Positions 2,162 through 6,832 of a DNA stretch of 64,000 nucleotides are shown here, piece after piece. Position 1 is the first letter of the stretch. The number at the start of each line of letters is the position of its first letter. Below the pieces are notes generated by a model. The model was not told the DNA's origin. It searched no databases and saw only the letters and a program-made list of their open reading frames with translations. Location of the stretch: assembly GCA_001662655.1 (NCBI GenBank), contig KV460240.1, one strand, 5' to 3'. The position numbers were made by a program, and so were the translations under genes. This DNA comes from Pseudogymnoascus verrucosus (lineage: Eukaryota).

Positions 2162-4138
2162 ATGCGCTTTTCCAAACCCTCGTTCCTGCCCTTCGCGAAG
2201 AGCTCCAGAAAGGCAAACATAATCACCGTCTTCCGCCATGCTCGCCGGAACCCACGCGACTTCGTCAGCCGCTTGTGGTGCCCTCGAACTATCGCGAAAT
2301 CGCTGGTCTTCCTTTCCGGTCTCGTCGTTATCGGTACGGCCATCGCCGAAATCCTACTCTATATCCGCACAGGGAAGAACAGCCGTATAGGCACTACGGT
2401 CATCAATCCGTTCATACCGCTCGCGCGTCCCAGTGTCCAAATACATCAGGGCATCTACAGAGGCGGCACCGCCAAGACTGGCCATGTCTTTGTCGAAAGA
2501 TTCCTCGGTATTCCATATGCACAGACGACGGGTGGATACAACAGGTTTATGCCGCCGGTCAAGATGATGGCAGGGATGACAAAACATGATGCGAGATATT
2601 GGGGCCACAAGTGCTGGGGAGGTCCAGACGGACCTGACCAGAGATCGGGAGATGATTGCTTGAACATCAATATTTGGCGGACACGAGGCGTGAAGGAAAA
2701 CCAGAATGTGCCAGTTGTTGTTTATTTTCACAGCGGATCATTTAATTTTGGGAGCGGTGCCGAAAGGGACATCGCTAGTTTTGTGGCATGGAGCGTGGAT
2801 CCAATCATTGGTATCTCGGTGAACTATCGAGTTGGTGCGTTGGGCTTCTTGAGCTCCAATCTTACTGCCGAGGAGGGCATTTTGAATCTCGGTTTGAAGG
2901 ATCAGGCAGCTGCCCTAGAGTGGGTGCAAGAAAACATCCGCATGTTTGGCGGAAACAAGGATCGAGTCACCATCTGGGGAAGCTCAGCAGGTGCACATTC
3001 CGTAAGTTACTTCTAGACTACCATTGATCGTCATGAGTGCGAGTCCTCTGAACTCTACGATCGTTTGATTGCTCAAACTAACATTACCCAGGTTGGCCAC
3101 CACCTCATGAAGATTGACGTCCCCGCACACTTTCAGGGAGCTATTATGGAATCTGGCGCTCCAACAGCTCGCGCCGTCTATCCATATAACCATCCCCTCC
3201 ACGAGGAGCAGTATAAAAGGTTTCTCGAGCTTACCGGCACCGCTGATATCCCCGACGAGTCAAAGATGACACATCTTCGCTCCATCGATATAGAGACAAT
3301 TGTCGCTGCCTCAGAGTCAGTTTTCCAGCAATACTCCGCATCTCTGCGCTGGCCTTTCCAACCTGTTATCGATGGACCCGGAGGCATGATCCCATGCGCA
3401 CCCCTCGAGAGCTGGAAAGCACGAGCGTATCACAAAGTCCCGATTCTGACCGGCTTCAACACCAACGAGGGCAGCATGTTCGTGGATACCGCCGTCGACG
3501 ATCCAAAGGAGTTCGACGAGTTCTTCCAGACACTGATCCCAAATTTTACCGAGAAGGACATGAGAGAGCTGAATGAGCTTTACCCAGATCCCTCAAAGTC
3601 ACCCGAGAGCAAGTATACCGAAGATCGCCCTGGTGTTGGCAAGCAGTACAAGCGTCTCGCGCGCGCGTACGGCGACTACGCTTATATTGCGCCAGTACGA
3701 CACACTGCCCACTTCGCGAGCGCATTGGATAGGCCCGATGATGCGGCGGTGTGGATGTACCAGTTCGACGTGAACCAAACGGTGATCCGCGGTTCGAACC
3801 ATGGCGACCAGGGAGAATACGTGGTGTACTCGCCCAGTGTGAGAAAACTGCCGTGGAGCAGGCATGGCGCGATTGGCGAGCAGATGCATGGTTATTGGAC
3901 TAGCTTTGTGATATCTGGCGATGTGAATGAAGTCAAGAAGGGTCGGGTTAAGAACCGCAGCACCTGGGCTCAGTATGGAAAGAGAGGAAGCAGCGCTAAG
4001 ATGGTGTTTGGAGAGCATAATAACCAGCGAGCCGGAGGGAAGGATGAGGGTGCCTTGACGGAGAACCGACCGGATCTTTGGGGTGATGCAGAGGGAGATT
4101 TCTGGTGGATGAGGACGATAATGTCGGAGAGGATATGA
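2162..4138 (+). CDS. Carboxylesterase type B / lipase (alpha/beta hydrolase), 2 exons
   Basis: Motifs FLGIPYA, DCLNINIW, NYRVGALGFL, NLGLKDQ, WGSSAG (nucleophile), TGFNTNEG and GSNHGD. GT-AG intron 3002-3091 joins ORFs 2162..3016 and 3065..4138. Confidence 0.92.
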
Positions 4139-4864
4139 GGGGACGCCCGGGGGGGCGATGATGGATGCGATGTGACGATTATAGACGGGACTTTCCAACG
4201 ACGTGTTTTTGTGTCAGGAGTTTCATACGGCGAGGGTGTGCACAGGCACGAGAATTCTAGGAGTGATTGGGATAGGACATTCATCTTGTAGCATAATATT
4301 TATTCACGCTGTTTATTTTAGTTCAGTACTGCGAATAGTAATACTCATCCAAATTACTGTGGTCCACCCTTGCCATTTCAGTGACTGGCTCCTGAAGTTC
4401 CCCCTTCAGTCACTCAACTACAAGCTAACCACCACAGACCTTCGAACAAAGCTCATATACCCCATTAACCCAACTCCTCCCGCCAACAAGCAGGTTAAGT
4501 GGTCAATGTGATAAAGTGACTGACGCTCATTCAGTAAGTGCTGAGTTCGAGCTCCGCAGTTCACATCAAGTAAAATCCAAAAATGGGTTTTCTTAGATAT
4601 CGATTACCAACTGTAATCGAATCGTTATTTTTGCATTTCTCTTCTAAAAACCAACTGCTCTTCATTAATCCTTCTTCTAAGTATGTCATCATATATCCCA
4701 TGTAATGCAAGTTCAATATCAAACTGCAGATACACAGAATTTATGGGGTTGGCTCAAACGTCTATATTTTTATTCAGGGATGCTGAAAACCGCTGCCATC
4801 TCAACCAAGACGAACAAGCTCTCTAAACTCATATAACAGAACAAACTATCCAAAGTTTCGTTCT

Positions 4865-5727
4865 CTACATAAAGTCTGACAAGTAATCATCATCTCTGTT
4901 CTGGTTGCTGCTCGCCTCCAGCGCCTCCTCCGTGAAAACATCATCATAGGCATGCTCCTTTTGGTACTTCAACTCCCTCCTCTCCTTCGCAATGCGCGCC
5001 TCTTCCTTCTTCCGCGCCTGCACGCCCGCCTGGTTCTTCTTGCTCTTCGCCTTCATGATCTCGTCGCGCTCGGCGGCGAAGTCGGGGAACTTCTCCACCT
5101 TGGTCTTGTTCAGACGGTTGATGATGGCGTTAATGCGTGTTGGCACGAGGATCTTCTTCACCTTCTTGTTGTCGTGAAAGCTGACTTGGCCGGTGGCCAT
5201 GGAGCCGTCTTTCTTCAGGTTGCTCCATGGCGTGTAGATGATGGTGACATTGTCTTTCTTGTTTCCTGAAAAGAGGTTAGTCACGTGGTTGAATAAGTCA
5301 TGGGGATTTAGCTTGCCTTCGATGGAGTTTGCTTTAGTGAGTTGAGCAAGATCAGTGAGGAGGTCTTGCGGGATGGATTCCCATGATTGGGTTTCGGAGA
5401 GGCGGAGGTAGATATGGGCGGATGAGAGATTGTCGACGTGGAACTGTGGGAGTTGGTGATGTTTCTTTCAAACGGAGATTAGACTTACCCTGGGCAGTTA
5501 TTAGCAAAGAACCTATTTAATTATTCTTAAAAATTAGGATATAACTTACCAAACGTCTTCCTCAACTCCGTATGCGATTAAATCCTCATCTGAGGCAAAG
5601 ATTAGTCACACGTTGCTTCTCAAAGAGCCAAGAGAAAAACCAGTAAAAACTCACTTTCGACCTTGTCTTTACCAACATAGACATACGCCGACGGCGACAC
5701 CGTGTTAGAGGTGAAATAGTAAACCAT
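4865..5727 (-). CDS. CCDC25: CCDC25/Jlp2 family protein (NFACT RNA-binding domain); exons 5727-5655, 5589-5550, 5489, 5443-5317, 5265-4865
   Basis: Spliced translation [52 protein letters not shown]...[37 protein letters not shown] matches family motifs. Confidence 0.9.
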
Positions 5728-5896
5728 CCTGCCTCCCGAAATCGCAACTTCGTTGTGGTGTGAATTTCTGGCCGAGGCCAAAATTATATTGACGGCGCCT
5801 CGGGTCTTTAGCGCCGACCGTAGCGAAAAGTATTGGCTTCACCTCCCTTCAACTTTCAATGACCTCCCTCCCCCAAGGCACCAAACCACCCACACA

Positions 5897-6832
5897 ATGG
5901 CGCCCAAACTCTCAAAACTAGGAGTGGCGCTCCAATCGCCCTCCTCCTTCCTTGCCGATACCCACGCCCTCCTCCCCCTCATCGCCAAGCGCGGCGTCAA
6001 ATACGGGTGGACGACCGCACCCGCCCGCTCAAAGGCGACACCAGGACGCTTCAACCAGGTCTCCGCTGGGCTCCCCATCCTCTCCGCCTCGCCCGCCGCG
6101 GCATTAAAACGAAAAGACTTCACCCTCCCCCTGCGAACAGGAGCGATGGGCATCAAGAAGGGCATGACCGCCATTTACGACCCCGAGACCGGCAAGCGCA
6201 CCGCCTGCACCGTCGTCCAATTCGACCGCGTGCAGGTCGTCTCGCACAAGACGCGCGAGAAGAACGGATACTTCGCGGTGCAGGTCGGCGCGGGATGGAA
6301 GCACCAGAGCAACGTCACGAGGCCGCTCCTTGGGCACTTCACCGAGGCGGGTGTCAGCCCCAAGAGGCACGTTGTGGAGTTCAGGGTCAAGGATGCGACG
6401 GGACTGTTGCCGACGGGACAGATGATCGGGCCGGAGTGGTTCACTGAGGGACAGTTTGTGGATACGCGCTCGAACTGTAGGGGAATGGGGTTTGAGGGTG
6501 GTATGAAGAGGCATGGCTTCAGTGGTCAGGGAGCGTCTCACGGTAACTCGAAGTCGCACAGACTTATGGGTTCGAGTGGTGGTTCGCAGGGAACTGGTAG
6601 CAGAGTTTTGCCTGGAAAGAAGATGCCGGGAAATATGGGTGGCCAACAGGTCACTGTGCAGAATGTTGAGGTGCTGAAGGTGGATGCTGAGAAGGGCATT
6701 ATTGTGCTAAAGGGATGTGTTTCCGGGCCAAAGGGCTGCGTGGTCAAGCTTCAGGATGCGATTAAGAAGCCATGGCCAAAGATGCCTGTTGTGGAGGAGG
6801 TAGTGGCGAAGGTTGAGGAGGTTGCTGCGTAA
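5897..6832 (+). CDS. MRPL9: Mitochondrial large ribosomal subunit protein uL3m
   Basis: L3 motifs KKGMT, GFEGGMKRHGFSG, SHGNSKSHR, GSRVLPGKKMPGNMG and KGCVSGPKG. ATG at 5897 followed by a basic presequence. Confidence 0.93.
   Translation: MAPKLSKLGVALQSPSSFLADTHALLPLIAKRGVKYGWTTAPARSKATPGRFNQVSAGLPILSASPAAALKRKDFTLPLRTGAMGIKKGMTAIYDPETGKRTACTVVQFDRVQVVSHKTREKNGYFAVQVGAGWKHQSNVTRPLLGHFTEAGVSPKRHVVEFRVKDATGLLPTGQMIGPEWFTEGQFVDTRSNCRGMGFEGGMKRHGFSGQGASHGNSKSHRLMGSSGGSQGTGSRVLPGKKMPGNMGGQQVTVQNVEVLKVDAEKGIIVLKGCVSGPKGCVVKLQDAIKKPWPKMPVVEEVVAKVEEVAA

Follow-up and report, generated by a model that had tools for sequence, protein, structure and literature searches.

The splicing of exons as short as a single nucleotide has been described in fungi and in plants. 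In the CYP621A P450 genes of Fusarium, a one-nucleotide exon arranged as AG|G|GT has been reported for 20 orthologues and is supported by RNA-seq reads, and the authors of that report, Nelson and Syed (2026), regard it as the second example from any gene and the first from a fungus (PMC12940212). The APC11 gene of Arabidopsis is described as containing a single-nucleotide exon, a base swap of which in a reporter showed up in the cDNA (Guo and Liu 2015, PMC4674806), and a long-read annotation of Coprinopsis cinerea is reported to hold 13 one-nucleotide exons (PMC12230235). Stwintrons, as defined in the reports on them, are arrangements in which an inner intron interrupts the donor, the branch site or the acceptor of an outer intron, and nothing is left between the exons (PMC5587772, PMC5639578).

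Results of our analysis of a 64,000-nucleotide stretch of Pseudogymnoascus verrucosus DNA (contig KV460240.1), the whole of which is referred to here as the window, indicate, with a probability that we put at roughly 0.9, that the G at position 5489 is a constitutive one-nucleotide exon of the Pseudogymnoascus CCDC25/Jlp2 gene. This exon joins the known but very small class of one-nucleotide exons and involves no new mechanism. Like the exon of the Fusarium CYP621A genes, it is a lone G in an AG|G|GT context between two short introns of a fungal nuclear gene, and in both cases the G completes a codon of a conserved motif, the arrangement is conserved in orthologues and backed by transcripts, and gene models nearly always miss it. 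The two differ in the gene and the protein family, and the Fusarium exon is described from one genus (PMC12940212), whereas the nearest named relatives of the loci with the CCDC25 exon span four Pezizomycotina classes. The APC11 exon is likewise presented as constitutive, with AG before it and GT after it, as necessary for the reading frame and as misannotated in databases, but it belongs to a plant gene, its base is an A, its introns are much longer (the base is 333 nt from the start of a 422-nt stretch) and its proof comes from a base swap (PMC4674806). The Coprinopsis annotation, which concerns a basidiomycete, shows a further likeness, namely, that fungal spliceosomes handle one-nucleotide exons routinely and that the omission of such exons breaks gene models (PMC12230235). 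Outside the supplements of the Fusarium and Coprinopsis reports, our literature search found no paper on a one-base exon in CCDC25/Jlp2. The new aspects of the present case, besides the four classes of its nearest relatives, are that it concerns a universally conserved gene and that the exon lies two codons from a His reported as essential.

The minus strand of the window, when read from 5800 to 4860, contains a small gene with the start codon at 5727 and the stop codon at 4867-4865. Its organization is as follows (X1 and X3 are two of the contig runs described further below):

5655..5727, minus strand: coding exon 1, 73 nt, with the ATG at 5727-5725; record 1 of the X1 spliced contig spans 5729-5655.
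5590..5654, minus strand: intron 1, 65 nt, GTGAGT..TGACTAAT..CAG; a 65-nt skip in the X1 contig joins 5589 to 5655.
5550..5589, minus strand: exon 2, 40 nt, with the 3' end ...GACGTTTG at 5550; the X1 and X3 pieces span 5548-5589 with 0 mismatches.
5490..5549, minus strand: intron A, 60 nt, with a GTAAGT donor, GCTAAT at 5505-5500 and a CAG acceptor; zero depth in the spliced contigs.
5489..5489, minus strand: the proposed one-nucleotide exon G, base 3 of the Trp38 codon (TG|G).
5444..5488, minus strand: intron B, 45 nt, with a GTAAGT donor and a CAG acceptor; zero depth in the spliced contigs.
5317..5443, minus strand: the FHVD exon, 127 nt, which begins with TTCCACGTCGAC (TTCCAC) at 5443 and carries His40.
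5266..5316, minus strand: GC-AG intron, 51 nt, with a GC donor and the branch site TGACTAAC; the X1 contig skips exactly 51 nt.
4865..5265, minus strand: the last coding exon, with the stop codon TAG at 4867-4865; the X1 contig spans 4755-5264.

The original prediction, made from the sequence of the window, had placed the two introns at 5549-5490 and 5488-5444, with the G at 5489 between them, and a coordinate-reading script returned the same coordinates and lengths, base for base. The final TG of exon 2 provides bases 1 and 2 of the Trp codon. At the G, an AG acceptor, the single base and a GT donor follow one another, and both flanking introns have full splice signals. The putative branch site of intron A is at 5501, 11 nt from the acceptor, and the branch-site candidates of intron B are weak (CCAAC/TCAC within CACCAAC, 5458-5452). 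As for the GC-AG intron at 5266-5316, its TGACTAAC branch site is perfect, and the intron, if retained, is in frame and stop-free.

Six splice models of the gene were translated, and an open protein, of 213 aa, resulted solely from the two-intron model that keeps G5489. Retention of intron A or intron B led to stops, and the cutting out of 5549-5444 as one intron caused a frameshift, as had been predicted. The region from the end of exon 1 to the FH exon was also searched exhaustively for sets of up to three GT/GC..AG introns, 30-400 nt each, that leave a stop-free product of 42 nt. The window allows 11 such sets, and the family score of the set with the one-nucleotide exon is 77, while that of the others does not exceed 10. 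The claim that the single G is obligate is upheld by these results: its inclusion alone completes TGG and the EDVWFHVD motif, one of the 11 canonical models fits the family, and leaving the base out breaks the reading frame.

The assignment of the gene to CCDC25, also made in the original prediction, agrees with database comparisons. The predicted protein matches NFACT-R_1 (PF05670, E 2.8e-15) over the region from the FH exon onward and the human CCDC25 chains 7eof, 8woh and 7eoe with an E of about 1e-34 (1.7e-34), the similarity to CCDC25 being close over most of the protein length. The FHVD of the window aligns with the FHVD of human CCDC25, and the conserved His is present as residue 40 of the 213-aa model. 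Among the 2746 database relatives of the protein, the nearest are a model of Pseudogymnoascus sp. (100% identity in the shared part) and a model of P. destructans (98%); a taxonomy check places Pseudogymnoascus in Leotiomycetes. Yeast Jlp2, a CCDC25 homologue, is reported to free peptides from peptidyl-tRNA on stalled ribosomes, and His44 of the yeast protein and His41 of the human one are given as essential for the peptide release by Jlp2 in the same 2026 preprint (10.1101/2025.09.04.673968). Trp38, which is completed by the lone G, is two codons before His40, the counterpart of this His. As judged from its sequence, the protein encoded in the window is a CCDC25/Jlp2 homologue, with a predicted activity.

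To place the exon structure beside transcripts, four contig runs were compared with positions 4750-5800. Contigs cannot show splicing intermediates, rare isoforms or strand. None of the runs is on record as RNA, the label of X1 and X3 is a guess, and their status as transcripts rests on the absence of introns; the spliced contigs of both runs derive from strains related to, and different from, that of the window. In X1, a 755-nt contig (depth 18.7), 95-99% alike, aligned with 5729-5655, 5589-5548, 5442-5316 and 5264-4755. Since it is devoid of all four introns, it represents a spliced message from a close relative. Of the 106 nt that separate exon 2 from the FH exon, exactly 105 are absent from this contig, as a skip between 5442 and 5548 with 2 nt of play at the joint. 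The same 105-nt skip is present in a 151-nt contig (depth 2) of X3, which differs from X1 in the study and the organism label, so the skip is seen in two runs, two studies and two organism labels. The message junction that the original prediction proposed to look for is thus present in both spliced contigs, and both hold one base that, in the DNA, adjoins neither of the exons on its two sides. The remaining runs comprise X24, which gave short pieces only, from more distant organisms, and X21, which gave unspliced DNA contigs.

A single cut of 105 nt can be placed in three ways, with the ends AA..GT, TA..AG or GT..CA, none of which is canonical; consequently, canonical sites yield the observed product only via two introns around G5489. 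The message alone is compatible with a G kept from 5549, 5489 or 5444, and the choice of 5489, from which the G of the message would derive, follows from splice-site rules and from conservation. The joint in the contigs could also be explained by one-step removal of a single non-canonical 105-nt intron (TA..AG, GT..CA or AA..GT), the inner AG-G-GT being coincidental. What the contigs display is indeed one 105-nt skip with 2 nt of play, with no lariat and no half-spliced intermediates, the latter of which contigs cannot show in any case, but no placement of such an intron has GT-AG, GC-AG or AT-AC ends. An intron of the U12 type was rejected together with other non-canonical single introns, as the ends AA..GT, TA..AG and GT..CA match no recognised pair.

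Another explanation of the unusual structure would be an error of assembly or sequencing, in which the sequence lacks a G at one exon border of a gene that really has a single ordinary intron. The window contains 154 N and so comes from an unfinished assembly, and an error of one base would look alike in a single genome. However, the X21 contigs, which are unspliced DNA of related strains, span 5399-5556 with substitutions listed inside both introns, and the sole indel listed in this interval is a 1-nt deletion at 5526, within intron A, at a distance from the exon borders (74 single-letter differences stand outside those listed). In addition, the same layout is found in 33 metagenome loci from many samples, and the independent annotations of Pseudogymnoascus go wrong in ways consistent with this DNA sequence. 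We consider such an error next to negligible as an explanation.

The metagenome loci were obtained by scanning metagenome contigs with the last exon of the gene, which gave 80 loci; exon 1 and the FH exon were placed in them by tblastn, and the same exhaustive model search was applied. Seventy-one of the 80 loci were scored, the nine left out being eight without a hit to exon 1 or the FH exon and one with a partial hit. The Trp is spelled via canonical models in all 71 scored loci. The layout of the window, i.e., a 40-nt exon, an intron, the lone G and an intron, is present in 33 of the 71, which represent 28 distinct sequences. No intron occurs at the Trp codon in 24 loci, a single phase-0 intron directly after the Trp codon occurs in nine (L045-L047, L049, L050, L054, L056, L071 and L077), and four loci, probably transcripts, have no introns at all. 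A phase-2 intron as the only one was found in 0 of the 71. The one locus left, L075, came out of the search as two touching introns, which we rejected as an artefact, since one 113-nt intron is an equal-scoring alternative. The nine loci with the phase-0 intron only have the structure that loss of the upstream intron would be expected to produce, and four of them have introns of 34-35 nt.

In the 33 loci of the same layout as the window, the product pieces are 1, 40, 1 and 0 nt, intron A is 45-69 nt long and intron B is 49-138 nt long. The intron sequences of these loci are so diverged that their alignment works only within close groups. When six diverged loci were aligned, conservation was confined to the G and to the donor, the branch-site block and the acceptor of each intron. 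The window and its nearest metagenome relative (L001) share GCTAAY and CACCAAY ahead of the respective acceptors.

Conservation of the ag-G-gt junction in orthologous genes had been proposed as a check of the exon, and the same arrangement is indeed present in 28 of 28 distinct loci. As a control, the interior of each of the 28 sequences was shuffled 500 times with the dinucleotide content kept. A usable AGGGT appeared in 596 of 14000 shuffles (4.3%), as compared to exactly one in each of the 28 real sequences, a difference that, as the 28 loci are related by descent, gauges retention under divergence and not independent origins or trials. In the 106 nt of the window alone, an AGGGT lying 30 nt or more from either end arose in 5.6% of 2000 dinucleotide shuffles, and the layout in the window taken alone is not beyond chance; the case for the exon rests chiefly on the full splice signals of both introns, the 105-nt skip, the 28 distinct loci and the X21 DNA. 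This frequency speaks for the coincidence demanded by a single non-canonical intron; against it, all 28 distinct loci retain the inner acceptor and donor with the G between them, as well as the second branch-site block, while the other intron sequence is scrambled and the chance is 4.3% per locus, and we regard such an intron as very improbable. RNA editing or insertion of a G was also dropped from consideration, as canonical splicing accounts for everything.

The nearest named proteins of the loci with the lone G belong, by a taxonomy check, to four classes, the labels of which are approximate below about 90% identity: Wilcoxina mikolae for L002 and L003 (94.7%, Pezizomycetes), Microdochium nivale for L041 and L042 (94.5%, Sordariomycetes), a Pseudogymnoascus model for L001 (81%, Leotiomycetes) and Penicillium lagena for L018, which stands for the six aligned loci (74%, Eurotiomycetes). 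The Penicillium lagena model is the nearest named hit for five of the six members of the aligned group, L018 included. The low identities of the more distant groups in the metagenome scan result from extra introns in the last exon, and the 'Ascomycota' labels of these groups, with protein atlas scores of 0.85-0.88, are leads, not evidence. Pezizomycetes branch early within Pezizomycotina, and therefore the lone-G layout is probably as old as this subphylum.

The two introns flanking the G differ in their signals. In the 28 distinct loci (L001-L062), the acceptor of the upstream intron is AAG, a weak acceptor, in 11, TAG in nine and CAG in eight, whereas the downstream intron has a YAG acceptor in 28 of 28 and C or T at position +4 of its donor in 22 of 28. 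This asymmetry may bear on the splicing order, or it may be mere shared descent.

In the reading that we prefer, two complete and independent U2-type introns (60 and 45 nt), each with a donor, a branch-site-like element and an acceptor, would flank G5489, and once both are out, the G would stay as the last base of the Trp codon in the conserved ..DVW-FH.. motif. In filamentous fungi, short introns are usually recognised each on its own, and intron A and intron B would be recognised individually as well. The putative branch site of intron A (5501) is 13 nt from the first donor base of intron B (5488). With the branch site and the donor only ~12 nt apart, simultaneous spliceosomes are unlikely, and hence the introns would, as the original prediction had it, be removed in turn. 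If intron A were removed first, the new junction, ...TGG|GTAAGT, would be a good donor; if intron B were removed first, the acceptor of intron A would be followed by the G and the FH exon. Either order would leave a canonical site for the second step and give the identical product, and the data do not discriminate between them.

An arrangement of this kind would act as a recursive splice site that retains one base. At the recursive splice sites of long animal introns, known as ratchet points, a donor comes immediately after an acceptor, so that a usable 5' splice site is restored by the first splice, and very long introns are removed stepwise with zero bases kept. The adjacency of acceptor and donor is common to both, whereas the CCDC25 gene keeps one base and its two introns are tiny. 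The original prediction had described the arrangement as akin to fungal twin introns. It does resemble stwintrons in having two touching U2-type introns, in their consecutive removal, in its occurrence in Pezizomycotina with their short introns, and in its bearing on one-base intron shifts between orthologues (PMC5587772, PMC5639578). However, the comparison goes too far if it is taken to mean a stwintron in the defined sense, because the two introns are each complete, with no signal of either split by its neighbour, and the message keeps one base.

A real exon could in addition serve a regulated switch, in which splicing from the donor of intron A to the acceptor of intron B would skip the G and lower the Jlp2 output, possibly via NMD. 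Skipping of the G leads to a frameshift ahead of the essential His and to a stop about 60 codons on, the upstream intron has the weak AAG acceptor in 11 of 28 distinct loci versus YAG downstream in all 28, and the old conservation of the layout could reflect a use. Yet the stop created by skipping falls in the last exon, a position from which junction-dependent NMD is poorly triggered. A 106-nt skip is not reported in any of the four contig runs, in which, as contigs, rare forms are dropped. Moreover, both introns were lost in 24 of the 71 loci and intron A in nine of them, and the loss of one or both introns in 33 of 71 loci indicates that the layout is dispensable for the function of the gene. 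We find a regulated switch unlikely; constitutive inclusion of the G would fit the message structure in both spliced contigs.

It is doubtful that the lone-G arrangement, if it does go back to the ancestor shared by all Pezizomycotina, owes its persistence to a function. One function that it could possibly have is that of a splicing-fidelity gate, in which a slip from the donor of intron A to the acceptor of intron B would lose the G and break the frame before the catalytic His. Another possibility is that the lone-G layout is a standing intermediate of one-base intron sliding. In terms of sliding, loss of the upstream intron leaves a phase-0 intron, as in the nine loci mentioned above, and loss of the downstream intron would leave a phase-2 intron, a state represented by 0 of 71 loci.

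The expectation that gene predictors miss the exon proved right, as none of nine Pseudogymnoascus models is correct. They fail in four ways: Val-Trp is lost because the donor used lies six bases upstream, the model gains five junk residues, whole exons are left out to give models of 157 residues, or, in the P. destructans model, one 106-nt intron is taken, which causes a frameshift. Among the best 120 database relatives, 50 have the correct ..D[VI]W[FY]H.. sequence and 70 are wrong at the junction. The errors consist in a dropped Val-Trp (41/120), insertion of other residues (14/120), a replaced or cut N-terminus (8/120) and a missing FH exon (7/120), and the wrong models come from many Sordariomycetes genera as well as from Phyllosticta and Wilcoxina. 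A search restricted to longer models gave 83 further proteins, of which 11 are right and 72 are not, numbers from which no error rate was derived because this set is biased to over-long or fragmentary models. Read-throughs of these introns are frequent among the 83, for example in models of Penicillium, Colletotrichum, Ophiocordyceps, Trichoderma and lichen fungi. In the models P0141-P0143 and P0156 (Talaromyces and one Penicillium), which have 731-746 residues, the CCDC25 domain is fused to a GRIP-domain protein (PF10375); the predictor has probably joined two adjacent genes in these cases, and they are not true fusions.

Alignments, structure predictions and conservation maps that are built on wrong CCDC25/Jlp2 models inherit a deletion of two residues, insertions of junk or absent N-termini beside the active site. 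The gene is a practical warning for fungal annotation, the errors being close to the active-site His of a factor that rescues ribosomes. The CCDC25/Jlp2 exon may also serve as a natural substrate for studies of how the spliceosome handles touching introns and as a test case for gene finders.

Two neighbours of the gene were assigned as well. The divergent neighbour on the plus strand (5897-6829) encodes a protein of the ribosomal protein L3 family (PF00297, E 1.3e-11), probably the mitochondrial form. Its start codon is 169 nt from that of the CCDC25/Jlp2 gene, and a shared promoter region is therefore likely. On the other side, also on the plus strand, positions 2162-4138 contain a carboxylesterase-family sequence (PF00135) in two ORF pieces about 50 nt apart, which are probably one gene with a short intron.
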